From a virus: a DNA stretch of 64,000 bases. The notes beneath the pieces were generated by a model. That model searched no databases. It was not told the origin of the DNA and saw nothing but the letters and a program-made list of their open reading frames with translations. The DNA lies in the IMG/VR virus record IMGVR_UViG_3300015263_000653, positions 1 through 64,000 of that record; one strand, written 5' to 3'. The number at the start of each line of letters is the position of its first letter. The first letter of the stretch is position 1. Position numbers and translations under genes: made by a program. Positions 8,651 to 32,008 of this stretch are shown here, in pieces.

Positions 8651-9115
8651 ATGACTGGTGACGAATTGAAAAAGCAACTGGCCGAAAAGTATCCGCAGAT
8701 CGGTTTGACCTTCGGATACATCGGCAACCTCGAACGCTGGGGTGATGATCGCTCGTGGTATTTCTTCACGAAGGTCCGTCCGCCGCAAAGTGACAACTGC
8801 CTGTCGTTTGGTAGCTGTCGCACCGATAAGCTGGACGAGTTTATCGCCAAGGCTGAACGAGAACTGGAGAACTGGATTGTCGAGCGGGTACTCCCGCACG
8901 CCGAACACGTCTATCGCAGTTTTGACGTGGTTGTGCCGTTGCATGTCGCTCCCATCGTGGAAAAGACCCTCAAGGCGCATGGAGCAAGTTTCGGTATGCG
9001 TGGTGGTGGTCGCTTCAGTTTCTCGTTGCAACACAAAACCCTCGAAGATATTCGAGAGATCGTTACGGGTCTGGTGGGAACCGAAGGCGTGACGGTCGAG
9101 CCGTCTCGCTGGTAA
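8651..9115 (+). CDS. hypothetical protein (array cassette)
   Basis: leader + SD; stop abuts repeat. Confidence 0.85.
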   Translation: MTGDELKKQLAEKYPQIGLTFGYIGNLERWGDDRSWYFFTKVRPPQSDNCLSFGSCRTDKLDEFIAKAERELENWIVERVLPHAEHVYRSFDVVVPLHVAPIVEKTLKAHGASFGMRGGGRFSFSLQHKTLEDIREIVTGLVGTEGVTVEPSRW

Positions 9116-9132
9116 ACACCCGCTTGGAACAT

Positions 9133-9209
9133 GCCCGGCTGACCGGGCCGGTGATCGACGCCAGTACAAAAATTGTACCGGGCTGTGATCCAATGCCAGT
9201 CAGCCGGGC
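9133..9209 (+). other. non-coding hairpin cassette
   Basis: GCCCGGCTGAC…GTCAGCCGGGC closes the unit between two repeats and encloses GTACAAAAATTGTAC. Confidence 0.7.
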
Positions 9210-9259
9210 CTCTAACACCCGCTTGAAACGAGAACACAACACACTACTAGGAGATCGAG

Positions 9260-9673
9260 ATGACGAAGCCAGAATTCGCCGCCCTGTCAGGATGGGCAAT
9301 CGCTGAACACTTCGGTTGCCAATACTACGGCGATGGTTCGCCAGTCCCGCATGGTGGTGTCTTCTATGACATGCGAGATTGGCAACGATACGGATATGCC
9401 AACGTGGTCAACATCTACAAAGACCCCGAAGGCGAGCCGATTATGACCGTCGAACGTGGCACGCTCAACAAGCCAGAGGACATGCAATCGGCATTCGATT
9501 GTGCTGGTACGCCGAAAGATCAGTACGACAATCCAGCCGCTCAGATCGAAGCCGTCTTCGCCGCCTGTGGTGTCGAACCCGATTCGGTCAACCCGTGGTC
9601 CTACTTCCCCATCGACGACGAAGATCGGTTGTGGGAAGAGACCGAGCAAGACCTGAAATTGCTCGGTAGCTAA
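9260..9673 (+). CDS. hypothetical protein (array cassette)
   Basis: leader + SD; stop in repeat. Confidence 0.85.
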   Translation: MTKPEFAALSGWAIAEHFGCQYYGDGSPVPHGGVFYDMRDWQRYGYANVVNIYKDPEGEPIMTVERGTLNKPEDMQSAFDCAGTPKDQYDNPAAQIEAVFAACGVEPDSVNPWSYFPIDDEDRLWEETEQDLKLLGS

Positions 9674-9715
9674 CACCCGCTTGATGGGAAACAACACACC
9701 ACTGGAGACCAACAA

Positions 9716-10102
9716 ATGACAAAGCCGTTTGTCCTGTATCGCAACACTAAGAGTCGTGTGGAACACGAACGAGAAGAAGAAGTGATGGATCGCATGGAAG
9801 CCGATGCGGAGATCATCGACTTTGAAGAGTTTGCAGAGAACTGTGAATTCAATGAAGTCGCTGAACAACTCGGCTATGGTGATGACCTGCCGCTGGCCGA
9901 TGATTGGTCTGTCAGCTTCAGCAAGAGCCAGTTCGGCGGATTGCCCTGCTTCATCCTCGGACACACAGAGTGTGATTTCATCTTCCTCAAACCGGAAGAC
10001 GCAAACATGCTCGGCGAACATCATGGTCAAGCCGCCGAAGGGATGACCGACATGGAATGGAAACGTCACACCGGTTACGGCAAGACTGGCCTCGACCCCT
10101 AA
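9716..10102 (+). CDS. hypothetical acidic protein (array cassette)
   Basis: leader + SD; stop in repeat. Confidence 0.85.
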   Translation: MTKPFVLYRNTKSRVEHEREEEVMDRMEADAEIIDFEEFAENCEFNEVAEQLGYGDDLPLADDWSVSFSKSQFGGLPCFILGHTECDFIFLKPEDANMLGEHHGQAAEGMTDMEWKRHTGYGKTGLDP

Positions 10103-10120
10103 CACCCGCTTGGAGATCAG

Positions 10121-10429
10121 ATGAACGTCAACATCACGGTAACTTGCCCAAAGCACAACATGATCGTCAATCCCCGGTATGTCACCGAACAACTGGAGAA
10201 ACGAATGTTCCAGATGCCGGGCGGGTTTCGGTTCCGACTGCAACAATGCCTGCCCTATCCGGGCGAGCCGTTTGAGAACAAGACATTGCAGTTCACCAAT
10301 ACTGTGCCGGTTGGCAGGATTCGTGACAACGCCCAGCGAACACCCACTTTCAAAGAGCAGCGAACACGCTTCGCCTTCAACATCGGAGATAACCAAGTCT
10401 CCGTGAGCACTGACCCCGAATCACAATAG
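10121..10429 (+). CDS. hypothetical protein (array cassette)
   Basis: SD overlaps the repeat end (TTGGAGA). Confidence 0.75.
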   Translation: MNVNITVTCPKHNMIVNPRYVTEQLEKRMFQMPGGFRFRLQQCLPYPGEPFENKTLQFTNTVPVGRIRDNAQRTPTFKEQRTRFAFNIGDNQVSVSTDPESQ

Positions 10430-10437
10430 GAGAACGG

Positions 10438-10851
10438 ATGAAACCGAACCCCGGACAACACGTCACTTGCTTGCATGAAATGGCCGCTTACTACTCCAAC
10501 TATGGACCGAACAAAGGCCGACATATCATCTTCCGGCCCGGCATGGTGGGAGTCGTTCACAGCATCACCCCCAAGGTGACACTGCCCAAGCGTGGCACAC
10601 CACTGCCGCCCGGCATCGACCGGAAAGATGAATTCGCCGTGGTCGATTACTTCGACGAGAACAACGAACCGCAACGGGTTGGCTTGAACTTCTGCAACGT
10701 GGTTATCGCTGAACTGCCCCGCAACACTTGCCCCGATTGTGGTGCGCCCAATCGTCCAGACAATGGCGAGCAACTTCATTACGTCAATTGTCCGCATCAC
10801 ACCAAGTGGGTCTTGAAAAGAATTCGACGACGCAAAGCGGCGAAAGCGTAA
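10438..10851 (+). CDS. hypothetical protein with C-terminal CxxC…H…C motif
   Basis: AGGAG SD; stop in repeat. Confidence 0.8.
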   Translation: MKPNPGQHVTCLHEMAAYYSNYGPNKGRHIIFRPGMVGVVHSITPKVTLPKRGTPLPPGIDRKDEFAVVDYFDENNEPQRVGLNFCNVVIAELPRNTCPDCGAPNRPDNGEQLHYVNCPHHTKWVLKRIRRRKAAKA

Positions 10852-10870
10852 CACCCGCTTGTGAAGTGTG

Positions 10871-11042
10871 AGAGAGTGAGCAGGGGGTTGGCCGGTTGTA
10901 TCGGACAATCCTCAAGTCTGCTGAAAGCTCTGCCTGAAGTGCGCACTAGGCTACTTTGGTGAACGTGACCGAAGGAAAAGGTAGATCAGCGGAAGGGATT
11001 GGCATAAACGGGTCGATTCCCGTAACTCCCTGCCCACTCTCT
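10871..11042 (+). ncRNA. tRNA-like structured ncRNA candidate
   Basis: Closing stem AGAGAGTG-GCAGGGGGTT/AACTCCCTGC-CACTCTCT; T-arm-like ACGGG-TCGATT-CCCGT; nested internal helices; no + strand ORF. Confidence 0.6.
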
Positions 11043-11092
11043 AACACCCGCTTGTGAAGCGTACAACACAACAACTTTCACTGGAGATCGCA

Positions 11093-11437
11093 ATGAGCCG
11101 TCGAATCACAATCACTTTCGATGTCGTGGATGAAGAGTCAGCCGCCCAAGGCGACTTCGCCGAAACCGGCTGGATTGACGAAGAGGGAGTGGAGATCACC
11201 CCCGATGAGTATGACCTCGACGATGCCGATGGCGATGAGATCGCCGCCGTGGTCGAACTCGCCAAGAAAACCATTCTCCAGAACGGTTGTGTCGAACCAT
11301 CGTCCAGCCAGTTCCATACCGGAGTCTGGTACACGCAAGTTGACTGCCCGATGGGAGAGGAACGCTATTCGTTCCACCTGAACGACTTCCTCCCCGAAGA
11401 GGAAGAGGCAGTTTACAACGCAATCACCGCCAACTAA
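11093..11437 (+). CDS. hypothetical acidic protein (array cassette)
   Basis: leader + SD; stop in repeat. Confidence 0.85.
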   Translation: MSRRITITFDVVDEESAAQGDFAETGWIDEEGVEITPDEYDLDDADGDEIAAVVELAKKTILQNGCVEPSSSQFHTGVWYTQVDCPMGEERYSFHLNDFLPEEEEAVYNAITAN

Positions 11438-11455
11438 CACCCACTTGGAGGATAC

Positions 11456-12037
11456 ATGAGCCAACTCGAAACACTGGTGAACCGACTGAACCGCCAACTG
11501 GCAGAAATCAATGCCCTCGTGCGGTTCAAGTACGCCCCTCGCAACAACTATGCCGCCGTCGATGAATTCGACGTGGACGTGGACGGGAATCGGACAAGCA
11601 CCGGCGACCGAAACGTGGCCTGCGGCACTCGCACCGAAGTCACCGACAAAGTGCAGGAACGGTATGAGGAACTGTTTGACACCCGCTTGGGAGAAGTCGA
11701 AGCCCTGCGGGATCGCTTGACCAAGATCAAGGCCAAAGCACGATTGAAATATCTGCGTGGCGAGATCGAAGCCGAACGCATCAGCTACGGCGAGATCGCA
11801 GAACTGCAATCGCTGGTGGAACACATCGACGATGGCGATGTTCTGCTGCTGGAGTGGGCTGGTGTCCCTGAGTTTCCCCCGGATACCGCTCCCTGCCTCG
11901 GTTGCGGTATCACACAAGTCGCTGTCGAAATCCTCGATAACGGTGGCGTGCCGGTCAATCGGTATCGCATCAAGTTGCCCGAATCGTGCGAAGTCAACAT
12001 CGACGAAGAGAACGGCGAAATCATCATCGACAACTAA
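11456..12037 (+). CDS. hypothetical protein containing an internal repeat copy
   Basis: GGAGG SD; in-frame DTRL at 11677. Confidence 0.8.
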   Translation: MSQLETLVNRLNRQLAEINALVRFKYAPRNNYAAVDEFDVDVDGNRTSTGDRNVACGTRTEVTDKVQERYEELFDTRLGEVEALRDRLTKIKAKARLKYLRGEIEAERISYGEIAELQSLVEHIDDGDVLLLEWAGVPEFPPDTAPCLGCGITQVAVEILDNGGVPVNRYRIKLPESCEVNIDEENGEIIIDN

Positions 12038-12082
12038 CACCCGCTTGAACAGCGTCAACACAACCCATAACAGGAGACCCAC

Positions 12083-12328
12083 ATGACACAGAATGGCCCC
12101 ACAGTGATCGCTGGCGAACAGAATGTCCGCAACGCCCGTGTTCTGGCACTGCGGAGTATGCTCGGCCTCGAAATCAAGGGACTGGGCCGACGTGGGCGAA
12201 GTGCCTACTCCATCGTCAAAGAGGAATTCGGCTTCAAGGGCGGCAAGCAAAAGGTCTATGACCAACTGGACGCCCATATCAAGGCGAATATCCTGCCCGA
12301 TCCGCCCACTGAGGCAACGACCGAGTAA
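12083..12328 (+). CDS. hypothetical protein (array cassette)
   Basis: leader + SD; stop in repeat. Confidence 0.85.
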   Translation: MTQNGPTVIAGEQNVRNARVLALRSMLGLEIKGLGRRGRSAYSIVKEEFGFKGGKQKVYDQLDAHIKANILPDPPTEATTE

Positions 12329-12372
12329 CACCCGCTTGGCAACCGTCAACACCAATCAACAGGAGAACAACA

Positions 12373-12696
12373 ATGTCCTTTGGAACGACGGTTGCCGATG
12401 CACTGAGAACCGCTGGATTCAACGTCACCGACGTTTACCAGTACGAATTTCGCTCGGTCGATATTGAGATTGGCGAAGAGTCGCTGACGTTCGGACTGCA
12501 ACACGATGGAACGGTGACGTGGCATGATTTCACTCACACCACTGTCATCGCTCCCATCGACAAGCCGGATGAACTCGTCGCCGCCTTCACCGAACTTCTC
12601 CCGCTAAGGGACGAAGCCCTGCAAGAGTGGATCGCAAGCCGCAAGTGGGAAACGCAAGAGCAACACCCGCTTGGACAACACAACACACCTTACTGA
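12373..12696 (+). CDS. hypothetical protein (reads through a CAAC repeat variant)
   Basis: SD; C-terminus QHPLGQHNTPY is encoded by repeat and leader. Confidence 0.8.
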   Translation: MSFGTTVADALRTAGFNVTDVYQYEFRSVDIEIGEESLTFGLQHDGTVTWHDFTHTTVIAPIDKPDELVAAFTELLPLRDEALQEWIASRKWETQEQHPLGQHNTPY

Positions 12697-12712
12697 GAAC
12701 AGGAGATCGCTT

Positions 12713-13102
12713 ATGTCAAGTCCGATTCGTCACCGCCTCTGCCGAGACGTTTGTTTCTCTCAAATCGTCGGAGCAATGCGGGATCGCTGCAACGCCCACT
12801 GGCTGGTCGATGCCATCGCTTCTCACCTGCAAGCCGGGAAGGAATTCAAGGCCGCTTGTGAGAAAGATGAACGCTTCCGTGATATGTCCATCTGGATTCT
12901 GCGGAAGACCGGCGACAGCACCGCCGAACTGATCGCCGTCGCTGACACCGACGCCGCATCCATGCGAAGGCCCGCCGTTCGTCAAGAGATTGAGCACACC
13001 GATTTCCCCTTCGACATTGAGGGGCAATACAAGTGCTACGCCTGCTGGACGATGATCGACGACAAGCCCTGCTATTACATCATCGACCCCAAGGAATACT
13101 AG
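12713..13102 (+). CDS. DUF6876-like phage protein
   Basis: WLVDAIASH…W.L…QEIE.TDFP motif, recognised from memory. Confidence 0.6.
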   Translation: MSSPIRHRLCRDVCFSQIVGAMRDRCNAHWLVDAIASHLQAGKEFKAACEKDERFRDMSIWILRKTGDSTAELIAVADTDAASMRRPAVRQEIEHTDFPFDIEGQYKCYACWTMIDDKPCYYIIDPKEY

Positions 13103-13177
13103 GGCAACACCCGCTTGGAAGACACCGGGGAGAATCGTCTCCCCGGTCATTCCAAAAATTGTACTGGAGAACAACGC

Positions 13178-13429
13178 ATGAAGACGATTTACCTGCTCAT
13201 GTGGGAAGGTCAACTTGGCGGTGGTGGCGGTGGCGGTTTTGAATGGCATCCAGAAAAACAGGTCATGGTCGAAACCCTTGCGAACTTTCTCCGCACCGGC
13301 CCCAAAAAGACCTACTACTGGGAGTTTGAGATCAAAGTCCCGTCCACGGCAACCGAGGATGAAATCAACGAGATCATCGAAAATCGGGCTGAGGAACTCC
13401 AAAACAGCAAGGTCGCCAGCCGGGTTTAA
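13178..13429 (+). CDS. hypothetical protein (array cassette)
   Basis: SD; stop in repeat. Confidence 0.8.
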   Translation: MKTIYLLMWEGQLGGGGGGGFEWHPEKQVMVETLANFLRTGPKKTYYWEFEIKVPSTATEDEINEIIENRAEELQNSKVASRV

Positions 13430-13471
13430 CACCCGCTTGGAAAACAACACAACACCTTTCAGGAGATCGCC

Positions 13472-13693
13472 ATGAACGATTTGCTCGCTGTAATCTTCTC
13501 GCCTGTCGCTCTCAGTGATGAAAAGCTGAGAGAACTGTCGGAGCATGGTATCAAAACCGGCACGGTTGTCGTCGCCGGTTGCGAAGACCGACAATGTTTC
13601 TGGACTCCACCCGGCTCGCCGCCTACCGTCGTCTGGAAGTCGGAAGACGAAGCCCAACAATGGATGGACGAATCGTTGCTCGGAGCGGGGTAA
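13472..13693 (+). CDS. hypothetical protein (array cassette)
   Basis: leader + SD; stop in repeat. Confidence 0.8.
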   Translation: MNDLLAVIFSPVALSDEKLRELSEHGIKTGTVVVAGCEDRQCFWTPPGSPPTVVWKSEDEAQQWMDESLLGAG

Positions 13694-13741
13694 CACCCGC
13701 TTGAACAACGTACAACACACACAACACTGGAGAACAAAACC

Positions 13742-13969
13742 ATGCTCGTTCGTGACTGGGAAGGGAAAATGGTCGAAGCCCCCGCCGACCTCAAGATTGC
13801 CGTCGCAACCTACTCCGACAATTACATCGTCTGGAGTCGCACCGGCAAGCGTCATCAAGTGCGGTATGGGCTGGAAGTCACCCCCTGCGGCAACGCCAAC
13901 GATGCCGCTCACAAGTTTGGTGAGTGTGTTCAACACTTCGCCGCCTGCGAAGGGAAGCTGGACGACTAA
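13742..13969 (+). CDS. hypothetical protein (array cassette)
   Basis: leader + SD; stop in repeat. Confidence 0.85.
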   Translation: MLVRDWEGKMVEAPADLKIAVATYSDNYIVWSRTGKRHQVRYGLEVTPCGNANDAAHKFGECVQHFAACEGKLDD

Positions 13970-14014
13970 CACCCGCTTGTAGAGAAACAACACAACACCT
14001 TTCAGGAGATCGCC

Positions 14015-14368
14015 ATGTACCGCTATCGTGACACCAATTGTTCAACCAAGGGATCGCTTCGGGCCATGAAGCACCTGCTGAAGCTCGGCACAATCACCGC
14101 CATCCGGGGTTACATTTACTTCGGACGTTACAACACGCTCCACGTCGGCGTGATGGTTCACGGTGAGAACGGAACCTGCCGATTCGGCGGTTTCTCATGG
14201 GGTTACGGTGGCGAAGGCCCACGGGGACTCAATGAGTTGTTCGCTCGCCTCAATGTCCCGCAAGCGGAACAAGCCCGGATTCAATCCATCCCGTGGACTG
14301 GCTGGAACGCCGTTCGTGAAGTGTGGCGAATCGACATGACTGCCCTTGAACAACGACAAGCGGCCTAA
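14015..14368 (+). CDS. hypothetical protein with FSWGYGGEGP motif (DUF6166-like)
   Basis: WGYGG.GP motif; ends RQAA. Confidence 0.7.
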   Translation: MYRYRDTNCSTKGSLRAMKHLLKLGTITAIRGYIYFGRYNTLHVGVMVHGENGTCRFGGFSWGYGGEGPRGLNELFARLNVPQAEQARIQSIPWTGWNAVREVWRIDMTALEQRQAA

Positions 14369-14441
14369 CACCCGCTTGAAGGGCATCACCGGCGCACGCC
14401 GCTTCGCACCAAACAACTTCACAACTTACGAAGGGAAACCC

Positions 14442-14699
14442 ATGTACGAAGACCTCAAAGCCATCGCTGATCGGCTCGAAGAACTCAATGAGGACAGTTC
14501 TGAGAACTCGGAATACTGGTCGCTGCAAGAGCGTTTCAAGCCGATGCTCGAAGCCGCTCTGCTGGAACAAAACCTTGTCCAGTTCACCAAGCCGCAACTA
14601 TTCGACCTGATGTGCTGGATCGGCACTCACCGGCCCGTCCCCCTGCACACCGTTTTCTCGTCGTTCAGCCTTGCTCGAAAGTACGGACTGCCCGAATAA
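14442..14699 (+). CDS. hypothetical protein (array cassette)
   Basis: stop in repeat. Confidence 0.8.
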   Translation: MYEDLKAIADRLEELNEDSSENSEYWSLQERFKPMLEAALLEQNLVQFTKPQLFDLMCWIGTHRPVPLHTVFSSFSLARKYGLPE

Positions 14700-14750
14700 C
14701 ACCCGCTTGTAGGGCATCGAGAGTAAACACAACACCATCTTGGAGAACCC

Positions 14751-15029
14751 ATGACCGACCCCACCATTCGCCGTTACATGCTGGTCTCTGACTATTCCAA
14801 CAATCAGACCGATCTGGAATGGCAAAGACTTTTGGAACGGATCGCTGTGACCGAACCGACATTGCTGCTGCAAGCTGTCGTGACAAAACACGGCTTGCGT
14901 GGCACAATGAACGAATTGGCCGATGCCGTCGAAGGGATGGAAAGCGTCCCCTATCTGCCAGTCGGGGAGAAAATCCACCCGGCAGACGTGAAGACTGCCC
15001 TCAACAACATTCGGGCTGACTTGTTCTAA
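14751..15029 (+). CDS. hypothetical protein (array cassette)
   Basis: leader + SD; stop in repeat. Confidence 0.8.
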   Translation: MTDPTIRRYMLVSDYSNNQTDLEWQRLLERIAVTEPTLLLQAVVTKHGLRGTMNELADAVEGMESVPYLPVGEKIHPADVKTALNNIRADLF

Positions 15030-15082
15030 CACCCGCTTGGACTGCGGTAACACACAACACAACTTTTGGATTGGAGATCGAC

Positions 15083-15376
15083 ATGAAACCCGGAGAAGGC
15101 GCAGCACACCTGCGAAAACTGCGAAAGCACTCGCCACTGCGAACCGACGTGACATTCCCCGAAGAGGAACACGTTGCCCACGCCGTGGCAAAGGCTCTCG
15201 ATGATCTGTGGTCCTGTAACGGCATCCACCCCGCTCGAATCGCTGGGCTGGCTCTCGAAGAGGCAAACAGCCATCAAGCCGCCGCCGTTTGCTTCGCTCT
15301 GGCCGAAGGCGATTTGTCGGTGGAAAAGTTGCGGGAGATCCTCGCCATCCGCAATCACATCGAAGTCACCGGCTAA
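15083..15376 (+). CDS. hypothetical protein (array cassette)
   Basis: leader + SD; stop in repeat. Confidence 0.8.
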   Translation: MKPGEGAAHLRKLRKHSPLRTDVTFPEEEHVAHAVAKALDDLWSCNGIHPARIAGLALEEANSHQAAAVCFALAEGDLSVEKLREILAIRNHIEVTG

Positions 15377-15399
15377 CACCCGCTTGGAAAGGACAAGAC

Positions 15400-15510
15400 A
15401 TGATCGTTGACAGAAAACAGAAGCGTCTGATTCGACGCATCAACTGGAAACTGATGCCTTGGCAAAGGAAACGACGGTTCACAATCCTCGGCTGGCAAGT
15501 CTGGCTGTAA
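15400..15510 (+). CDS. small basic peptide (36 aa)
   Basis: AAGGA SD; fills the space between two repeats. Confidence 0.65.
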   Translation: MIVDRKQKRLIRRINWKLMPWQRKRRFTILGWQVWL

Positions 15511-15556
15511 CACCCGCTTGAACCCAGTCAACACAACACTCACAGGAGATCAGAAC

Positions 15557-15898
15557 ATGAACATGATTCAGCGTGCCGCTCTGTCGCCCGTCCCCGGAAA
15601 CCACAAGGTGATCGCTGGTGGACCCATCACCCTCCAGCCGCATTCTCGTGCCTATCGGGTTGTTATCGCCAACTGGGGTGACAAGCTCTCGGTTCATCAG
15701 GAAATTTTCGACGTGGACAAGGCCGACAACGCCGACGACCTCGCCGAAGCGTGCCGCAACGCCGAAAGCTGGCTCGATCAGGGCAGTTACTTCGGATACG
15801 ACGAACTTCACAAGGCCCAAAGCGAATTCGCCAACCGGCTGACGAAGCACGCCTATCACGTTGAAAGCATCTACCGGGATGTTCAGGCTGCCGCCTAA
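15557..15898 (+). CDS. hypothetical protein (array cassette)
   Basis: leader + SD; ends VQAAA. Confidence 0.85.
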   Translation: MNMIQRAALSPVPGNHKVIAGGPITLQPHSRAYRVVIANWGDKLSVHQEIFDVDKADNADDLAEACRNAESWLDQGSYFGYDELHKAQSEFANRLTKHAYHVESIYRDVQAAA

Positions 15899-15970
15899 CA
15901 CCCACTTGGACACCATGAGAGGGTGACAACGAGTCACCCCAAACAACCCTAGTTTTGAGGAGACTGCCCT

Positions 15971-16345
15971 ATGACCATGCGAAACCCCCGTGGCAAGACG
16001 TTGAACCGTGCAATGCGGGATGCGGAAGCGAACTTCCGCTATCTCCAGAAGTTGACGGTCAACACTTCGCCGACCCTGAATCGGCTCGGCTCTGTCGCCG
16101 TGGCAACCATCCCAAAGGCTCCGAAAGATGGCTCGAACAAGCTGACTCTCAGCGTTCGTGGCATCGCCGAAGAGTCCGCCCGGATCGCCAAGGTGCTCAA
16201 AAACGGTGTCACCGCCGACCAGATTGCCGCTGGTGCGACCGTTCCCGTCAAGTTCAGCCGCATCGACGTGATGGTGACGTTCAAGATCGACGCCGCCGCC
16301 GTCAATGCCGCTCAGGAACGTGTCAAGCGTCGGATCGCTGCCTGA
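15971..16345 (+). CDS. hypothetical basic protein (array cassette)
   Basis: GAGGAG SD; ends RRIAA. Confidence 0.85.
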   Translation: MTMRNPRGKTLNRAMRDAEANFRYLQKLTVNTSPTLNRLGSVAVATIPKAPKDGSNKLTLSVRGIAEESARIAKVLKNGVTADQIAAGATVPVKFSRIDVMVTFKIDAAAVNAAQERVKRRIAA

Positions 16346-16463
16346 GTGACACCCGCTTGGGAAGCGTGAGGCAAACGCCGCCCTGCCTCACGCTTCCCAA
16401 CTCTTTCATCTAACACCCGCTTGGGAAGCGTACAACACACAACACCTTTTACTGGAGATCGCA

Positions 16464-17069
16464 ATGATGACCACGACCATGACCCCAAAGGATGCTTGGC
16501 TGTACGCTGCAAGCTGGGGATCGCTGATCCGAAGCGGAGACCCCGGCGCATGTATGTACGGATTCAATGAGTCCTGCCGCCCTCAGTCTGAGGAACACCG
16601 GCAAGCGGTTCTCGAATACGTCAAGGGTTGCCGTGCCGCTGTGGAAGCAAGCCCGGAAGACTACGATGATGATGAACTGGAAAAGATGGATGCGTTCGTC
16701 GAATTCATCACCAATCGGGGCATCACCGGTCAAGAGCGTGAACCATTCATCATCGAAATCAGCCTTTGCGGCTCGGTGAGCGTTTGCAAGATGGATGGCA
16801 GTGAGATCGACGGCGATTTGCTCAACGATCTGGCCGACTGCAATGCCAGCGGAGATTGCGAACCCGCTTGTCGATACGTTCTCGACCAGTACAAGCCCGA
16901 ATTTCGCATCGTTCGCAAGGTCGGTGACAAGTATGAAAACGTGATCGCCTCGGCAAAGGAAAAGAAAGCCGTCTGCAAAACGATCTATTTCGACTCCGAA
17001 ACCGACTTCGACGATGAGGACAACTGCAACGTCTACCTGATGTGGGAAGCCGCTCACGACGAAGAGTAA
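16464..17069 (+). CDS. hypothetical protein (array cassette)
   Basis: leader + SD; stop in repeat. Confidence 0.85.
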   Translation: MMTTTMTPKDAWLYAASWGSLIRSGDPGACMYGFNESCRPQSEEHRQAVLEYVKGCRAAVEASPEDYDDDELEKMDAFVEFITNRGITGQEREPFIIEISLCGSVSVCKMDGSEIDGDLLNDLADCNASGDCEPACRYVLDQYKPEFRIVRKVGDKYENVIASAKEKKAVCKTIYFDSETDFDDEDNCNVYLMWEAAHDEE

Positions 17070-17234
17070 CACCCGCTTGGACACCATCTGAGAAACATGC
17101 AATACCTCGAAGGCTCCGAATGGAAAGGAGGTGGCCCATGAAGTTCTGAACCCCGATCTGAATTGAACATGAGGTACGCCGGGGGAGGCAACTCCCCCGG
17201 CTACGCCTAACACCCGCTTGAAGGAAAACAACAC

Positions 17235-17426
17235 ATGAACCCATCGACTCACAACGGATTCATTCTGGCCTATTCCGGCCCCGTGTTTCCGGCATCAACC
17301 GCCAACCAAATCACCTACGATTGCTTTTGCTTCATGGGCGGATTGGCGAACGGACGATTGCAAAAGATCGAAAAACGAAACGGCAGCCACGTTTACCACA
17401 CCTACCATCGGTGCGACACTGCCTAA
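17235..17426 (+). CDS. hypothetical protein (array cassette)
   Basis: flanked by identical 25-bp junctions. Confidence 0.75.
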   Translation: MNPSTHNGFILAYSGPVFPASTANQITYDCFCFMGGLANGRLQKIEKRNGSHVYHTYHRCDTA

Positions 17427-17448
17427 CACCCGCTTGAAGGAAAACGAC

Positions 17449-17685: not shown

Positions 17686-17731
17686 CACCCGCTTGTTCGT
17701 CGTCAACACAACCCTTTCACTGGAGAACACT

Positions 17732-18091: not shown

Positions 18092-18136
18092 CACCCGCTT
18101 GGCAAGAGTCAACACAACCCAACCAATGGAGAACCA

Positions 18137-18565: not shown

Positions 18566-18612
18566 CACCCGCTTGGATCATGTAACAACACAACACCTAA
18601 CTGGAGATCGCT

Positions 18613-18978: not shown

Positions 18979-18990
18979 CACCCGCTTGAA

Positions 18991-20890: not shown

Positions 20891-20906
20891 CACCCGCTTG
20901 GAGAGC

Positions 20907-23393: not shown

Positions 23394-23678
23394 CACCCGC
23401 TTATGGTTCATCAGGGTAAAGCCAATCCTGACAACAGTGAGCAAGTGAGGCGCAGGGGGAACGTAGGGAAAATGGGATGTTTTGGCCTAGTCCCAGTCCT
23501 TTGTGGTGTCCCCGTGGCGTCGGAGCGGCTGGGGAGCGGTGTCCAGTACAATTTTTGGACTGGTCGCCGGGATGTTTAAGATAGTTTAAGAAGCTGGCCG
23601 ATACTTATGTTATCTTAAACAACGGTGCAACACCCGCTTGTAATCTGTAAGAACGAACCTTAACTGGAGGAAAGAGCA

Positions 23679-23879
23679 ATGGCTAAGCGTAGGCGAAAGC
23701 CTCAACCCGTAGTGATGCCGAAAGCCGAGTCAAATCGGTTTACGATCACCATTGATCCGTTGAAAGTGGCGATGGGCCATCAGCCACATATCACGGGGAC
23801 CGGCGTGCATGACAACCGCCCAAAGCGGAGGCGCACAAGGTCCGCCCAAACACTCGCTTGGAAAGGCGAGTGGAACTAA
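23679..23879 (+). CDS. small basic protein (array cassette)
   Basis: GGAGG SD; GTGVHDNRPKRRRTR motif; stop in repeat. Confidence 0.8.
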   Translation: MAKRRRKPQPVVMPKAESNRFTITIDPLKVAMGHQPHITGTGVHDNRPKRRRTRSAQTLAWKGEWN

Positions 23880-23964
23880 CACCCGCTTGTAACCTACTCA
23901 GTAACTCGAAGAGTTACTGAGTAGGAAACTGGGAACCAACAAACACCCGCTTGGAGAACGACGA

Positions 23965-24216: not shown

Positions 24217-24326
24217 CACCCGCTTGTCAACCATCTGAGTAACTCTTCGAGTTACTCAGATGGGAAGCGGGACTGAGAGAACACCCGCTTGGAAGTCAAC
24301 ACAACACAACTTTTGGAGACAAGCCA

Positions 24327-24689: not shown

Positions 24690-24768
24690 CACCCGCTTGG
24701 ACACCACCTGAGTAACTCAGAGAGTTACTCAGGTGGGCAATCCACCTAACACCCACTTGGAGAGAACA

Positions 24769-25082: not shown

Positions 25083-25343
25083 ATGTGGTTTGAAGTGATT
25101 GATCCTCACGGCTGCGAAGCGGTTGTGGTGAAGCAAAACGATCACGCTTACCACTGGTTCGATAAGAAGCACCGTGCCACTGCCAGCAACAGCAGTGCGG
25201 CTCGGTGTCACTTGGGCGGGCTGGGAGACGCCATCGGTACGGATGGGGAAATGTGGGGTTACAAAAACCTCGTGAAGAACGCCCCGGAAGAACTGTCCCG
25301 CAACTACGAAGGACTGTACGTCGCAATTCAGCAGGTGATGTAA
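25083..25343 (+). CDS. hypothetical protein (array cassette)
   Basis: stop in repeat; start uncertain. Confidence 0.65.
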   Translation: MWFEVIDPHGCEAVVVKQNDHAYHWFDKKHRATASNSSAARCHLGGLGDAIGTDGEMWGYKNLVKNAPEELSRNYEGLYVAIQQVM

Positions 25344-25394
25344 CACCCGCTTGGAAAGCGTAACAACCCAACACAACTTTTGGAGTGCTGAACC

Positions 25395-25658
25395 GTGGAG
25401 AATCTTCAAGACTACAACGGACACCCGCTTGCAGTGGGTGACACGATCCAAAGCATCGAGAATGGTTGGCGTGGTGTCATCCAAGCCATCGGCGAAGACG
25501 AAGGCCGAAACACCATGCTGGAATGTCTCGGTGTCAACTTCTGGGATGGATCGCTGGACGAAGACGACCGGCAATGGTACTCGGCCTATGACGTGGTTTT
25601 CCAGCCCCGTCAGGAGCACCAGCCCGGCGACCCGATCAACGCCATCAACATGATGTAA
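25395..25658 (+). CDS. hypothetical protein (array cassette)
   Basis: leader + SD, GTG start; stop in repeat. Confidence 0.8.
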   Translation: MENLQDYNGHPLAVGDTIQSIENGWRGVIQAIGEDEGRNTMLECLGVNFWDGSLDEDDRQWYSAYDVVFQPRQEHQPGDPINAINMM

Positions 25659-25667
25659 CACCCGCTT

Positions 25668-25748
25668 GGGGCAGTGTGAGAAGTGAGTCCTGTGTCCGAA
25701 AGGGCAACGTAACTGCGAATTAACGCACGCCGTTCTCACACTGCCCCT
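25668..25748 (+). other. non-coding hairpin cassette
   Basis: GGGGCAGTGTGAGAA…TTCTCACACTGCCCC 15-bp stem, then TTTT and the next repeat. Confidence 0.75.
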
Positions 25749-25881
25749 TTTTAACACCCGCTTGTGGTGTATGAGGGAAAGGCAAAAGGCACTCTGAGAA
25801 CCCTACGGGGGGAATGAGAGAATCCCACGCCAGAGCCGTTGTGTCTGGGACACAGCCCCTCTAACACCCACTTGGAGGACA

Positions 25882-26040
25882 ATGATGGAAGACGGGACAA
25901 GAGTGTATGTGCCAAGCGTTGGCAAGAGCGGAACGATGAAGTTCTCAGTGCCCGGCAATGGCACGTTCCGCTGGTATATCGTCGAGTTCGACGACGGCAC
26001 TGAGGATCGTTTTGTCCTTGAGGATTTGCAGCGGGAGTAA
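25882..26040 (+). CDS. small hypothetical protein (52 aa, below the ORF-track cutoff)
   Basis: GGAGG SD; MMEDGTRVYVPSVG…DLQRE; stop in repeat. Confidence 0.75.
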   Translation: MMEDGTRVYVPSVGKSGTMKFSVPGNGTFRWYIVEFDDGTEDRFVLEDLQRE

Positions 26041-26088
26041 CACCCGCTTGAGTCCTGTACAACACACAACACCTTTTGGAGATCGCTG

Positions 26089-26403
26089 ATGTTGACAGAC
26101 GAACAAAAGAAAGAGCGTCGGTTTCTCAGTCACAACATTGAACTGGGACAACGGGGCCGCAAGCGGATGCCGTTCAGCGAAGTCTGTATGCACATGCGGA
26201 TCGCTGGCAAGTACATGGATTTCGAGTTGCTCAACAAGGAGTATCCCGGAGTCCAGTTGTACGAAGACGGTCGCCCGTTCTCTGGCTCGATCACGACCGG
26301 CGAAGCTGGCATCTTCCATGACTCGGAGCGGGGATATTACTACTACCCCCACGAGTACAACGCCGAGAACATGGACGACGCCGCCGACAACCCGCCCAGT
26401 TGA
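26089..26403 (+). CDS. hypothetical protein (array cassette)
   Basis: leader + SD; stop in repeat. Confidence 0.85.
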   Translation: MLTDEQKKERRFLSHNIELGQRGRKRMPFSEVCMHMRIAGKYMDFELLNKEYPGVQLYEDGRPFSGSITTGEAGIFHDSERGYYYYPHEYNAENMDDAADNPPS

Positions 26404-26482
26404 CACCCGCTTGAACCTCACCTCAGTAACTCAAAGAGTTACTGAGGTGGACAACCCCGAACCCATTTGGAGGAACACCCAC

Positions 26483-26686
26483 TTGAAAGACAGAACAACC
26501 CTTGGCCTGATGGCAGCACTGCTGAGCATGGGCGGCATCATCCCGATGCCATCGTCGGAACCTCGTCGCCGTGTGTATCGGTCGCCAGAGGAACGGCGAG
26601 ACCTGAACGCCGTCAAGGCGGAAAAGAAGCGAAAGCGGAAGATTTCGCAGAAGTCCCGCAAGGCCAATCGACGCAAGGCGGCATAA
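26483..26686 (+). CDS. small basic protein with hydrophobic N-terminus
   Basis: GGAGG SD, then a TTG start supplied by the repeat variant; ends RRKAA. Confidence 0.65.
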   Translation: MKDRTTLGLMAALLSMGGIIPMPSSEPRRRVYRSPEERRDLNAVKAEKKRKRKISQKSRKANRRKAA

Positions 26687-26736
26687 CACCCGCTTGAACA
26701 ACGTACAACACACAACACTTTCTGAGGAGATCGCTG

Positions 26737-27129
26737 ATGAGTTTCAAGTTTCGCCACGTTACCGTCAAGCTCGGCAACATGCGGAAAGAGGCCGAGTTCG
26801 TGGTCTGTCCGGTGAGCAATACCGCTCCCCATGAGATCACGATTCAGAGTGACAAGCGGATTGCCCGTGTCAATCTGGAGACGAAAAAGGTCATCGTGAG
26901 CGATGGCAAGGGCGGGCATCCGGGCTTCCACAAGCTGCAAGCGTTCTGTGGAGCGAAGGAATACGACGCCCCGCAAGACCTGCTCGACCAGTTGTCCGCA
27001 CTGGAAGAGGATCACGGCCCGATGGAGTCTGGCCCGGTGGTTGTCATGGATGAGAACGGCCCGGCCCCCAGCGTCCACGCTCGGCGTGAGACTGTCCCCA
27101 GCGGCCCGGTTTCCATCTTCGACCTGTAA
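26737..27129 (+). CDS. hypothetical protein (array cassette)
   Basis: leader + SD; stop in repeat. Confidence 0.85.
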   Translation: MSFKFRHVTVKLGNMRKEAEFVVCPVSNTAPHEITIQSDKRIARVNLETKKVIVSDGKGGHPGFHKLQAFCGAKEYDAPQDLLDQLSALEEDHGPMESGPVVVMDENGPAPSVHARRETVPSGPVSIFDL

Positions 27130-27197
27130 CACCCGCTTGGAGACTGTGAGACAGGAGTGGCCTGTCTCACAGTCAATCCAACTTTTGGAGTGGACCA

Positions 27198-28290: not shown

Positions 28291-28495
28291 GACACCCGCT
28301 TGGAATACACTGGGGGAGACCGGGTAAAACGCCTCGGTCCCCAACTATCAAACCTAAAGCGACCCGACAGGCCGCACCCGGTTCTCCCCCTTTGATTTAC
28401 CTTTTTCGTCACTGGGCGACGGCGAATGTCCAGAACACAACGCCAGTAACACCCGCTTGGACAGCGGTAACACAACACAACTTTTGGAGTCAGCC

Positions 28496-28675
28496 ATGAC
28501 ACCGGCTCAACGTCAGCAGCGGCAAAACATTCGCAATGCGTATCTTGTGGCATCCATCGAAGAGATGGAAGCTGGCAAGGCTCAACAGAACGATTTCGGC
28601 AAGAGCGTCCTGCAAGAGATGATCGACGAGTGCAAACAGCACGGCGTTGACAACTATGGGAAGACTCCCCTCTAA
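28496..28675 (+). CDS. hypothetical protein (array cassette)
   Basis: leader + SD; stop in repeat. Confidence 0.8.
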   Translation: MTPAQRQQRQNIRNAYLVASIEEMEAGKAQQNDFGKSVLQEMIDECKQHGVDNYGKTPL

Positions 28676-28724
28676 CACCCGCTTGGGGAGTGTACAACAC
28701 ACAACACCTTTTTCGGAGATCGTG

Positions 28725-29228
28725 ATGAAAACCGTCACACGTCAAAGCCAGTGGGGGACTGGCAACATGGTTGTCGAGATCAGCGATGGTGGGATTGACT
28801 ACTGCAACCCCGATGCACTGTCCGCAAAGTATCGGGGCGAGTTCGAGGAATTTGCCGATCCTCGTGAGGCAGTGGAAACCGCTATCACCATCGCTCAACA
28901 GTGGCAGGCGGATGCTCCCGATAAGACCATCCTGATTGACCACGGTGGCACCGGTGGAATGACCATGCCATTCGATGGGATGGAACTGGGAGAGGAAACC
29001 TACACCGCTCTGAGGGAGTGGGCAAACAGCCAGTATGAGGAACTGGAGAAATGTTGCCGCTGTGGCGACATCCTCGGCAAAGAGCGATGGACACACCCGG
29101 AACTCTGCGAAGAGGAAAAGTTCTGCTCTGAGAACTGCTGTGACAACGCCTACTGGGACATGATGAAAGAACTCGAAGAGGAGGAGGAGGAGGAGGACGA
29201 GGATGAAGAAGTAGAGGACGACGAGTAA
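28725..29228 (+). CDS. hypothetical protein with zinc-finger-like C..C…FCSENC and acidic tail
   Basis: leader + SD; stop in repeat. Confidence 0.85.
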   Translation: MKTVTRQSQWGTGNMVVEISDGGIDYCNPDALSAKYRGEFEEFADPREAVETAITIAQQWQADAPDKTILIDHGGTGGMTMPFDGMELGEETYTALREWANSQYEELEKCCRCGDILGKERWTHPELCEEEKFCSENCCDNAYWDMMKELEEEEEEEDEDEEVEDDE

Positions 29229-29988: not shown

Positions 29989-30360
29989 ATGAACTTCGCC
30001 GTCAACACCAAAGACAGCATCTTGGCAACCTTGCGGGATGCGATTGATTTGCAGGATTACATGGTCAAGGCCGACCACATTCTGGATGCCCTGATGACGA
30101 CGGCAGGCGTCTGGACTGAGTGTGGCTATGCCTACAAGGCGACTGAGATCGCCAATATCATCGGCCAGCGGTTCACCGATGAGATCGGCAATTGCCATCA
30201 CCACAAGACCCACGCCAAGATCGACACCATGCGGATCAAGGCGTACACCGTCGCCCGGTTCTTCTGTGAACAGCAGTACGAGTATCGGGAAGCCCAGCAA
30301 GCGGAGATCGACGCCATGTTGGGCATCGAACACAAGACCGATATGGAGCTTGCGAGCTAA
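29989..30360 (+). CDS. hypothetical protein (array cassette)
   Basis: leader + SD; stop in repeat. Confidence 0.85.
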   Translation: MNFAVNTKDSILATLRDAIDLQDYMVKADHILDALMTTAGVWTECGYAYKATEIANIIGQRFTDEIGNCHHHKTHAKIDTMRIKAYTVARFFCEQQYEYREAQQAEIDAMLGIEHKTDMELAS

Positions 30361-30472
30361 CACCCGCTTGGAAGGTGTTGAGAGGGTGCTGTCTGGAGGC
30401 GACAGCCAAGTGTCACCCAGTCTCAGGTGAAACAGCCCGATCAACACCCGCTTGTAAAGTGTCACCGGTGGC

Positions 30473-30680
30473 AAGGACGACCGGGGAGAACACTGAGACA
30501 ACCGATTAGCCCACCGCTACCTACTGTCTTTACCGAAACTGCTGTGACAGCCGCCAGTCTGATGACGGGTTTACCGTACCTTGGCCGAGGCGTTGTCCAC
30601 TGGAAACGGCGACAGCAAAAGTAGGCAGAGTGGACGGTGTGCGAATCGAGTCTCAGTGAAGTATCCCCGGTCCTCTCCTT
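30473..30680 (+). ncRNA. rod-shaped structured ncRNA candidate (~210 nt, 6S-like size and shape)
   Basis: Nested pairs AAGGA/TCCTT, GACCGGGGA/TCCCCGGTC, CACTGAGAC/GTCTCAGTG, CGATT/AATCG, CACCG/CGGTG, CCTACT/AGTAGG, TGCTGT/ACAGCA, CCAGT/ACTGG; ends at the next repeat (30681). Confidence 0.65.
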
Positions 30681-30729
30681 CAACACCCGCTTGTACAACG
30701 TAACAACAACACCTTCTGAGGGCCACAAG

Positions 30730-30870
30730 ATGAATCAGCGTCGGATCTACCAACTCATGACGGAGTTGGGCAAGGAACTGGAGTCGTACAATCCGCCCGG
30801 CAATGTCAAGTTCAAGGCGGCAATCGCTGGCCTGCGAGCGGCCATCAAGAGTTTGCGAGTGTTCTTCTAA
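30730..30870 (+). CDS. small hypothetical protein
   Basis: leader + GAGG SD; stop in repeat. Confidence 0.7.
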   Translation: MNQRRIYQLMTELGKELESYNPPGNVKFKAAIAGLRAAIKSLRVFF

Positions 30871-30921
30871 CACCCGCTTGGACAACGTAACAACACAACC
30901 CACTTCTCAGGAGTTCACACG

Positions 30922-31155
30922 ATGAACCACAATCCCGGCGTCAACCGCATGAAGAACATCGCCCGCAATGGCTTCCTGTCCTCGCTGGTCGCCAAGGCCC
31001 ACGCCGGGCAGCGGCCCGACATCACCCTCAAGCCGAAGGGCGTCACCTGTGAGGAACTGGAGAAGTACCTCAAGGCCAACAACTGCGGCTGGACCAAGCA
31101 CGCTGGCGGACGGTATGTCATCGGCTCCCTGCGACCGGCCCGCAAGGCAGCGTAA
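30922..31155 (+). CDS. hypothetical protein (array cassette)
   Basis: leader + SD; ends ARKAA. Confidence 0.8.
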   Translation: MNHNPGVNRMKNIARNGFLSSLVAKAHAGQRPDITLKPKGVTCEELEKYLKANNCGWTKHAGGRYVIGSLRPARKAA

Positions 31156-31284
31156 CACCCGCTTGGAGAGTGTCAGCCAACAACCCCTCAGTTACTCTTT
31201 GAGTAACTGAGGGGGAGCGGCTGGCCGGGACCAACACCCGCTTGGACCGTGTTAAGACCACAACACCTTTTTGGAGATCGAGTC

Positions 31285-31857
31285 ATGTTGAAGTTGTTTG
31301 TTCTGGAGTGCAGCACCGTCGAGGAACTGGAATCGGCAATGTCCCGCATGGGGCTGAGCAAGGTCAAGCCCGAACTGGCTGTGCTGGTCACGCCCGGTGG
31401 CAACGTCGAGGAGCCGACGCCAACGCCGCCTGCCCCCAAGGCTGACACCCGCTTGGAAAGTGTTGAGACGGAAACGACTCAACCGCCAGCCCCCAAGGCT
31501 GACGCCAAGCCGCCCCGCAAGTCGAAGCGGAAGGGTGGCGGGGGTGGCTTCCGCAAGGCAGCCCCCAAGACGTTCACCGATTTGTCGAAGCTGGAAGGCA
31601 TCGGCATCTATCACAAGGCCGATGGCACGCAGAAGGTTGTGGGCATCATCGGACGGAGCGAAGGCAAGGGCGGCAACGCTGGTCACGAGATTCTGTGGCT
31701 CGGCAACGTCGAGCGGAAGGACGGCGAGATTGTGTGCTGGTCCTTCGCCAACGGCGACCCGTGGACGCACAACGCCACCCGCTTCCCGGAAACGATCACC
31801 GATCTGGCCCCGTACAGCCCGGACTACGCCGAACTGCTGGTCGAGATGGTGGGCTAA
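31285..31857 (+). CDS. hypothetical protein with Pro/Lys linker containing a repeat copy
   Basis: PPAPKAD occurs twice around an in-frame DTRL; KPELAVL resembles KPELVAL of the next gene. Confidence 0.85.
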   Translation: MLKLFVLECSTVEELESAMSRMGLSKVKPELAVLVTPGGNVEEPTPTPPAPKADTRLESVETETTQPPAPKADAKPPRKSKRKGGGGGFRKAAPKTFTDLSKLEGIGIYHKADGTQKVVGIIGRSEGKGGNAGHEILWLGNVERKDGEIVCWSFANGDPWTHNATRFPETITDLAPYSPDYAELLVEMVG

Positions 31858-32008
31858 CACCCGCTTGGAAAGTGTCGAGAGGGGGACGACAACCCCTCTC
31901 GCTCTTTCCTCTCTCTCACTCTCAACTGCGAGTGAGTGAGAGGGGAGAGACAGACTAACACCCGCTTGTAAGTTGTGAGAGGACACAACACTAACCGAAA
32001 GGGATCGA

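Follow-up and report, generated by a model that had tools for sequence, protein, structure and literature searches.

What is the function of a short repeat that flanks every unit of a long array of viral genes, and what are the units of that array that hold no gene? The question is raised by the window analysed here, the first 64 kb of the 89,856-bp IMG/VR virus record IMGVR_UViG_3300015263_000653, which comes from marine sediment. Its left 32.5 kb form a one-directional block of small genes in which a 13-mer, TAACACCCGCTTG, recurs at the unit junctions. A codon-usage-based gene call places 82 genes on the plus strand of the array and leaves approximately 19 repeat-to-repeat units without a credible gene. 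The presence of such geneless units had been claimed in an earlier sequence-only reading and is confirmed. With a probability of roughly one in two, we read the repeat as a transcription signal tied to start sites, in all likelihood a promoter; the gene-free units would then be small RNA or hairpin transcription units shuffled by recombination at the repeat.

The repeat itself is sharply defined. With up to two mismatches it is found 104 times, against 1.0 expected, on the plus strand only, and it is absent from the other 57 kb of the record. In the sequence logo the core ACACCCGCTTG is invariant. It is preceded by T and A, and followed by G and A, a variable stretch and then a pyrimidine–purine–T signal: site position 18 is a pyrimidine in 82 of the 104 copies, position 19 a purine in 100 and position 20 a T in 67. 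In most units the TAA contributed by the repeat is the stop codon of the preceding gene. Coding units continue beyond the repeat with an A/C-rich leader, a GGAG ribosome-binding site and an ATG. The repeat is non-palindromic and has no structure of its own. In a literature search the 11-mer core turned up only in unrelated PCR primers.

Fold z-scores were computed against dinucleotide shuffles for all gene-free units, with windows of 50, 90 and 180 nucleotides (nt) inside genes as the control. These coding windows have mean z of −0.4, −0.6 and −1.2, respectively, and 0–10% of them fall below −3. Eleven gene-free units reach −4.4 or lower (range −4.4 to −7.6; table 1). Eight folded units had been listed from the sequence alone. 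Six of them lie well below their shuffles (z −4.7 to −7.1) and retain 94–100% of their pairs when 80-nt flanks are added, the range for structured gene-free units overall being 83–100%. The two others, 18991–19085 (z −2.2) and 25772–25861 (z −1.4), fail this comparison. Missing from the list were the structured units with five palindromic hairpins, as well as 28303–28446 and 32478–32572. Units 15387–15507, 23641–23847 and 30371–30441 are no more structured than shuffles; the first two may be genes for small basic proteins of 36 and 66 amino acids. A 66-amino-acid, Arg/Lys-rich open reading frame (ORF) at 23679–23879 crosses a degenerate repeat copy at 23848 and stops in the TAA of the repeat at 23877.

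Could the gene-free units simply be decayed genes or functionless chance folds? The three unstructured units just named would fit this view, as would 18989–19091 and 25765–25861, which are likewise unstructured against shuffles, and for such weak units it is possible. For the structured majority it is refuted by the eleven units at a z level that coding controls almost never reach, and by two families of elements that are conserved with compensatory changes. As a general account it is very improbable.

The first of these families is a four-way-junction RNA. Homologues of the window copy occur in five other metagenomic contigs (L091, L099, L129, which is identical to L099, L155 and L120). Family members are 135–175 nt long and share a 17–20-bp closing stem with CAGGGGG:CUCCCUG, a four-way junction and three inner hairpins. 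In the RNAalifold consensus, 15 of the 45 pairs carry compensatory double changes, and both the closing stem and the final hairpin contain such pairs. When only four relatives are used to build a covariance model, the model recovers the window copy at 30.4 bits (E approximately 2e-4) as its sole match in the window. The relatives score 142–150 bits against the family model on the array strand and 27–37 bits on the opposite strand. The window copy contains six G–U pairs and folds at −76.9 kcal/mol on the plus strand versus −60.0 kcal/mol on the reverse strand. The G–U pairs and the strand-biased scores and energies together point to an RNA of the array strand. Rfam has no match to the family, whether in the window or in relatives L091, L099 and L120, where only tRNA was matched. 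By these comparisons the element at 10868–11041 is predicted to be a member of a new RNA family. A tRNA- or Y-RNA-like module was considered for 10871–11042 and rejected: the T-loop-like hairpin is not family-wide, and the 90-kb record gave no match to a TROVE partner. In the window this hairpin has a 6-nt loop, TCGATT, where a canonical T-loop has 7 nt; its equivalent in four relatives has a 4-nt loop on a covarying stem.

The RNA starts just past a repeat. In the window and in L091 it extends as far as the following repeat; in L099 and L155 a T6 run comes between the RNA and that repeat, and in L120 the RNA continues into a ribosome-binding site and ORF. With the exception of L120, it occupies a repeat-bounded unit of its own (window, L091, L099, L129 and L155), and its changing neighbours across viruses mark it as an independent module. 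L120 also holds a tRNA-Lys(UUU) gene alone in its unit, 32 nt past one core and 7 nt before the next. These units support the proposal that the repeat frames RNA modules and genes alike.

The second family is a palindromic hairpin, the AGTAACTC hairpin, of the form xxxxxxxAGTAACTC-N3-GAGTTACTxxxxxxx. Five window units carry it as a perfect 15-bp stem with an inner 8 bp of AGT(A/T)ACTC and a 3-nt loop. The relatives contain 20 further copies, 13 of which lie after a gene and 1–30 nt upstream of the next repeat; most junctions of the window have no palindromic hairpin upstream of the repeat. Over 24 distinct copies the outer seven pairs vary freely. In this set 98.1% of cells are paired, versus 75.6% after shuffling, and the covariation score is 0.578 versus 0.138, a value matched by none of 500 shuffles; slid controls show 31–47% pairing. 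An IMG/VR scan for the palindrome core returned eight chance palindromes, none with the repeat.

Other structured units are lineage-specific. A blastn search of the complex units against the relatives gave no homologues, palindromes excepted. Elements 9133–9209, 25668–25747, 30455–30680, 31876–31949 and 28303–28446 have none in 415 kb of relatives, and single-sequence covariance models for 25668–25748 and 9131–9211 found no matches there. Rfam 15, with its families for 6S RNA, tRNA, tmRNA, Y RNA/YrlA, pRNA and small ribozymes, yields no match in the window at the gathering score and, at E up to 10, none on any gene-free unit (positions 1–33000). A scan of the window with ARAGORN gave neither a tRNA nor a tmRNA. 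Element 9133–9209 has an 11-bp G+C-rich closing stem from site position 19, and an apical hairpin bearing a GTACAAAAATTGTAC box; the GTACAA-N3-TTGTAC box at its tip recurs in G001, a relative described below, and in several other relatives. The shorter form TACAA-N3-TTGTA (often GTACAAAAATTGTAC) is a second conserved palindromic box. It is found at 9165–9177 in the window, in G001 (L028/L029) and in L084, L092, L096, L113 and L120, its position varies among the relatives' arrays, and it may be a protein-binding site. At 25668–25747 a perfect 15-bp closing stem starts from the last G of the repeat, and a T run follows. Unit 30455–30680 consists of a small hairpin, then a rod of approximately 200 nt with many small internal loops. 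A 6S RNA, typically a rod of about 185 nt whose large central bubble mimics an open promoter, was considered for 30473–30680 and dropped, as the predicted fold has no such bubble and there is no match to RF00013 or any other Rfam family.

A further kind of element is seen at 16357–16400. The hairpin consists of a leader start paired with its own inverted copy, and the unit that follows opens with the 8 nt of the 5′ arm (GGAAGCGT). Perfect hairpins directly 3′ of a repeat are also present in L089, L091 (two in tandem) and L096. The last unit of the array, 32478–32572, has a layout that resembles that of a small-RNA gene with an intrinsic terminator. Within gene-free unit 17080–17207, a strong ribosome-binding site (AAGGAGGT) precedes a 3-codon ORF at 17138–17149, and a 13-codon ORF at 17169–17210 spans a 10-bp G+C hairpin and stops at the repeat's TAA.

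Table 1. The repeat array and its gene-free elements. Coordinates are those of the 64-kb window; z, fold score against dinucleotide shuffles; pairs kept, base pairs retained with 80-nt flanks.
Element	Coordinates	Strand	Gene-free unit	z	Pairs kept	Remarks
Repeat array	741–32477	+				104 copies of TAACACCCGCTTG, core ACACCCGCTTG; ~82 small genes, ~19 gene-free units
Folded 77-nt element	9133–9209	+	9127–9212	−5.5 and −5.3 (unit −5.5)	100%	
Four-way-junction RNA	10868–11041	+	10862–11041	−4.7		Closing stem CAGGGGG / CUCCCUG; last base adjoins next repeat
Hairpin, perfect 17 bp	16357–16400	+	16360–16410	−7.1		Starts in TTG of repeat
10-bp G+C hairpin	17178–17201	+	17080–17207	−2.6 (unit)		End of unit; two mini-ORFs
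Weakly supported fold	18992–19084	+	18989–19091	−2.2	34%	
Palindromic hairpin	23893–23925		23890–23940	≤ −4.4		Family member, alone in unit
Palindromic hairpin	24231–24263		24227–24278	≤ −4.4		Family member
Palindromic hairpin	24704–24736		24700–24746	≤ −4.4		Family member
Folded 80-nt element	25668–25747	+	25669–25751	−5.6	100%	
No significant structure	25765–25861	+		−1.4 to −1.6	34%	
Palindromic hairpin	26419–26449		26414–26472	≤ −4.4		Family member
Long hairpin and T-rich tail	28303–28446	+		−3.6	83%	Gene-free unit
226-nt unit	30455–30680	+	30455–30680	−5.2	94%	Six G–U pairs
Palindromic hairpin, A/T-swapped core	31184–31214		31166–31231	≤ −4.4		Core AGTTACTC..GAGTAACT; inside outer stem 31170–31226
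Two adjacent hairpins	31876–31949	+	31868–31955	−5.4 to −6.2 (unit −5.4)		Hairpins 31876–31901 and 31902–31949
Last array unit	32478–32572	+		−5.9		Repeat, 12-bp hairpin, GCAAAAATTGTAA box, short hairpin and T8

How do these folds sit between their repeats? In strong stems the first paired base lies 0–10 nt past the repeat. The distance from the last paired base to the next repeat is 0–7 nt in complex units and up to 15 nt in simple hairpins. The suggestion that one outermost helix runs from repeat to repeat is in this sense close to what is found; it breaks down at 31877–31950, which is two hairpins. Stems had further been said to enter the TTG or the six variable bases (N6) of the site. This is so at 16357–16400 and 25668–25747, and a third stem, 27142–27174, starts at site position 15 within a coding unit's leader. 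Among the 12 strong stems, nine start at site positions 13–18.

One reading of this placement is RNA punctuation. A long polycistronic RNA would be cut at the 13-mer by an endoribonuclease, freeing mRNAs and folded RNAs whose closing stems, flush with the cut sites, protect their ends. All 12 strong stems do lie between repeats, several of them from the first base past the repeat, and stems are placed in the same way in relatives (reverse complement, rc: L091 rc 8663, L096 rc 3981 and L120 rc 2201). Few terminators separate the units. In eight coding units, moreover, the GGAG ribosome-binding site is made of the last G of the repeat and an N6 starting with GAG (repeat starts 6506, 10100, 11435, 19092, 20888, 23941, 24747 and 25862). 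These genes are nearly leaderless after the repeat, with ATG at site positions 20–24. Because their ribosome-binding sites are built on the repeat's last G, the 3′ end of the repeat must be transcribed and present in functional RNA. A cut right after the repeat would, however, split the GGAG sites of these same eight genes, and a pyrimidine–purine–T at a fixed 6 nt past the repeat is unexpected for a cleavage site. The repeat is without structure, no nuclease candidate has been identified, and an array in Novipirellula opens with a repeat in a divergent intergenic region, where no co-directional gene precedes it. We regard RNA punctuation as unlikely.

The distribution of the repeat outside the window bears on its role. 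Scans of IMG/VR for the repeat and its flank found one true relative, G001 (239 kb, approximately 46% complete), in which nine exact cores lie on one strand in the same stop/leader/ATG layout; all other matches were single chance occurrences. A metagenome scan for two cores 307–337 nt apart gave 82 loci. About a third of these belong to an unrelated 164-bp tandem satellite containing the 11-mer and were excluded. The satellite loci (L080, L087, L100, L115, L118, L122, L123, L130, L148 and L150) are marine contigs containing ACACCCGCTTG and constitute a trap for motif searches. The true arrays, 43 loci and the first 20 kb of G001, comprise 414 units, each array on a single strand. Of 26 distinct gene-free units in the relatives, 14 have z < −3. 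Neither an IMG/VR scan with a 22-nt conserved piece of the four-way-junction RNA, nor a search of G001 and four Planctomycetota genomes with its family model, gave a match. A tRNA gene of G001 (L028 15921–15992) has the anticodon CTA, is of the amber suppressor type and is called tRNA-Pyl by ARAGORN.

Among species genomes, the scan for paired cores matched several Planctomycetota, namely Novipirellula rosea, Roseiconus nitratireducens, Schlesneria and three metagenome-assembled genomes (MAGs). Four of the five genomes that were searched whole have one local chromosomal array whose 11–17 exact cores share a strand (L165, Novipirellula rosea; L163, Roseiconus nitratireducens; L172 and L173, Planctomycetota MAGs). 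By sequence inspection, their neighbours are ArdC-like, AAA+, helix-turn-helix and integrase-like genes. Many metagenome relatives (L092, L095, L101 and L136) are such integrated elements, not phage. The product of window gene 16464–17069 is 61% identical over 210 amino acids to that of a cassette gene in a Planctomycetota chromosomal array. This common gene and the arrays in Planctomycetota chromosomes indicate that phylum as the host. The right part of the window's own record encodes a tape-measure protein, a baseplate wedge and other tail proteins, which identify a tailed phage; with a completeness estimate of approximately 18%, its genome is probably several hundred kilobases in size. On present sequence evidence the window is best described as the left arm of a fragment from a very large tailed phage of Planctomycetota, with about 85 small orphan genes in its one-way block, and the repeat appears to be common to huge phages and integrated elements of this phylum.

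Is the repeat also a boundary at the level of DNA? In a related contig in run X3, position 11042 is joined to 25341. Both are first bases of repeats, and the shorter side of the joint extends 202 nt. The four-way-junction RNA unit, with 13 substitutions, is here joined at the repeat to a unit from which 14.3 kb separate it in the window. Contigs of run X3 are approximately 94% identical across 25341–26948 and 28447–28999. Most other read joints extend only approximately 20 nt to one side, no further than the repeat, and were not counted; X3 is the single solid case. Tandem identical gene-free units, in two to four copies and each with its own repeat, are seen at L090 rc 1260–1518 and L091 rc 8663–8779, the outcome expected from unequal recombination between repeats. 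One solid junction thus supports the repeat as a probable unit boundary in the DNA. The sequence-only reading had viewed the repeat as a physical boundary, made by RNA cleavage or DNA recombination, rather than a translation signal. The X3 junction agrees with the boundary, as do the cassette genes common to the phage and Planctomycetota chromosomal arrays, and units that hold only RNA and are untranslated rule out a purely translational signal. A role as a cleavage site or a dedicated recombination site goes beyond this evidence: any conserved 13-mer could yield such mosaics through recombination.

The breakpoint at repeats is also what a dedicated, integron-like cassette recombination would produce. 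The 13-mer with N6-GT would then be a site-specific recombination site, and the hairpins its folded DNA partners. Extended identity is commoner in adjacent than in distant junctions (at least seven of eight matches in 8 of 103 adjacent pairs, versus 1.4% of non-adjacent pairs). As DNA, the palindromes pair perfectly, G–U pairs being hardly seen in them, and cassette genes are common to phage and chromosomal arrays. On the other side, a hairpin is found at only about one fifth of junctions, the repeat is not palindromic, and the 90-kb fragment lacks a tyrosine recombinase: a search for Phage_integrase and tyrosine recombinases gave no match in the record, itself only approximately 18% of the genome. 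Homologous recombination between identical 13–21-mers accounts for the mosaics, as it does for the repeats of T4-like phages discussed below (PMC4122927). Dedicated cassette recombination is improbable. A broader formulation, in which the 13-mer bounds the units of an undescribed cassette system common to huge phages and integrative elements of Planctomycetota, as a nuclease-cut RNA punctuation mark or the site of a dedicated recombinase, is somewhat less so, though still doubtful. If it were true, a single machinery would move or process protein genes, tRNAs and folded RNAs as interchangeable modules, and phages would have their own equivalent of integrons or tRNA punctuation.

Several observations favour a start signal instead. 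All copies of the repeat are co-oriented with the genes, and the pyrimidine–purine–T follows at a fixed 6 nt. Sigma-70-type promoters show no excess in the array (4 versus 7.2 expected), which we count in favour of this reading. In the Novipirellula rosea array the first repeat stands 37 nt before the ATG of the first gene, within the divergent intergenic region. The window array closes with a repeat, hairpins and a T8 terminator. Endings of a stem and a U-run occur after 25747 (CTTTTT) and after the four-way-junction RNA in L099 and L155, and are also present after 19084 (TTTTT) and at 32545–32572 (T8). A sigma-70 region 2 gene forms a repeat-bounded unit in the G001 array (G001:C1:4943-5152; L159:1039-1938, minus strand; 299 amino acids). 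G001 has a second sigma-like gene at 166 kb. Sigma-54, ECF-type and boxA-like readings of the 13-mer, and its pairing with 16S rRNA, were dropped for poor fit.

Other observations weigh against the start-signal proposal. No RNA run matching this DNA was present among the sequencing runs, and neither an RNA polymerase nor a sigma gene turned up in the 90-kb fragment; the sigma-like protein of G001 has no homologue in the window's record. A Pfam search for a T7-like RNA polymerase in G000 and G001 gave no match and is uninformative, control genomes being unmatched too. Initiation at position 19 would trim 1–6 nt off the 5′ arm of nine of the 12 strong stems. The eight ribosome-binding sites at the repeat lie upstream of such a start, so that transcripts would have to include the 3′ end of the repeat, whether through read-through or by starting at the terminal G. 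The argument in the sequence-only reading that stems entering the site exclude transcription from the downstream GT is fair for that exact point; it is silent on a terminal-G start or upstream read-through. A recognizable terminator is missing from most units: no U-run follows 9209, 11041, 31949 or any palindrome, and a simple terminator scan of the array gave no overall excess (32 versus 26.3). Five complex units have no homologues, in 415 kb of relatives, from which covariation could be read. Finally, G–U pairs are nearly absent from the palindromes, so both strands are perfectly complementary, and a DNA-level palindrome or a templated origin may fit these elements at least as well as an RNA hairpin.

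A further alternative is a stoperator-like arrangement. Here an element-encoded, monomeric DNA-binding protein would occupy the 13-mer at every junction and block or control elongation, and the gene-free units would be leader, terminator or regulatory hairpins within long operons. The asymmetric 13-bp site, its orientation with transcription, the short intergenic spaces and the overlapping stop codons all recall L5-type stoperators (PMC9283540), and the repeat is also present in integrated Planctomycetota elements with an integrase and a helix-turn-helix gene. The number of sites is nevertheless out of proportion, approximately 100 in 32 kb compared with some 25–30 in a mycobacteriophage genome. 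The block shows no promoters of another type, and no repressor candidate has been identified in the fragment. The autonomous conserved RNA and the tRNA, each in its own unit, fit independent units better. A stoperator-like role is thus as unlikely, in our view, as RNA punctuation.

How might a start signal of this kind work? (i) The 13-mer would be a signal specific to this group of mobile elements. (ii) The start point would be the terminal G of the repeat or the purine that follows 7 nt downstream. (iii) About a fifth of the units are free of ORFs, and most of these are self-contained folded modules of several kinds. Lineage-specific folded RNAs (9133–9209, 25668–25747, 30455–30680, 31876–31949, 28303–28446 and 32478–32572), some of them ending in a stem and U-run like small-RNA genes, stand beside the four-way-junction RNA, and the perfect hairpin of leader start and inverted copy (16357–16400) is another kind. 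(iv) The palindrome, usually placed between a gene end and the next repeat in relatives, would serve as a 3′-end, insulator or protein-binding element. (v) Units would be duplicated, lost and exchanged via recombination at the repeat, because the same 13-mer flanks every unit. We infer the promoter role of the repeat, the production of discrete small RNAs and the function of those RNAs; the folds, the two covarying families, the unit with a tRNA, the mosaic junction and the connection to Planctomycetota are observed.

None of the nine largest proteins encoded in the array matches a Pfam family above the curated cut-off, and megablast of positions 9000–20000 gives no match to GenBank phages. 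Gene 26089–26403 has homologues that are 51–70% identical. Outside the array, the minus strand of 54745–64000 contains an RNA-repair-flavoured cluster, in which an AAA ATPase and a histidine phosphatase are encoded beside the HAD domain of ‘Swiss Army Knife’ RNA repair proteins and a poly(A) polymerase/CCA-adding head domain. At 49045–49812 there is an RNase H-like gene.

Planctomycetota viruses have received hardly any study, and in huge phages the regions for early takeover consist of orphan-gene blocks. A searchable signal of 11–13 nt now marks such blocks in phages and integrated elements from sediment, soil, wastewater and marine samples. Some 10–20% of the units hold a folded RNA or hairpin instead of a protein gene, and two conserved, covarying elements are without a match among known families. 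The findings supply candidates for phage small RNAs, a hairpin-binding factor and a new promoter specificity. In the array, modules that include RNA genes are shuffled at a putative regulatory repeat, which makes it a clean example from nature.

Several known systems resemble parts of this array. Phage small RNAs and tRNA genes, 6S RNA, Y RNA and tmRNA share with the gene-free units stable folds, paired 5′ and 3′ ends, a length of 80–230 nt and a phage context. They differ in that the units lack an Rfam match even at E up to 10, and a Ro (TROVE) gene gave no match in the 90-kb record. Integron attC arrays are likewise one-way series of small unrelated cassettes with a recurring boundary element, and some boundaries here are hairpins. 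The phage boundary, in contrast, is a non-palindromic 13-mer with hairpins at a minority of junctions, each unit has its own leader and ribosome-binding site, and no integron integrase was found in the record. In halovirus HF2, repeated intergenic sequences are proven promoters (PMC8707807), but these are AT-rich archaeal promoters of 29–58 bp in few copies. The stoperators of cluster A mycobacteriophages L5 and TipsytheTRex (PMC9283540) are asymmetric 13-bp sites in many copies, with an orientation tied to transcription and positions in intergenic regions and stop codons. Compared with these, the density here is about four times higher, the site also precedes the array's first gene and RNA-only units, the pyrimidine–purine–T lies at a fixed 6 nt downstream, and the fragment yielded no repressor candidate.

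Promoter-early stem-loops (PeSLs) of T4-like phages are conserved short elements that flank small orphan genes of the variable early regions and act as crossover points at which unrelated units are swapped between related phages (Arbiol et al. 2010, PMC2839356; Comeau et al. 2014, PMC4122927). The 13-mer differs from them in having no −35/−10 pattern and is not a sigma-70-type early promoter. It is also far denser (104 copies in 32 kb), overlaps stop codons and is present in integrated elements of the host phylum, and many of the units between its copies are folded RNAs, not genes. The likeness lies in the architecture. The phage repeat, too, flanks small ORFs and coincides with the breakpoint in X3. 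In relatives a conserved hairpin, which most junctions of the window lack, often lies just upstream of it and would make a composite of hairpin and putative start signal.

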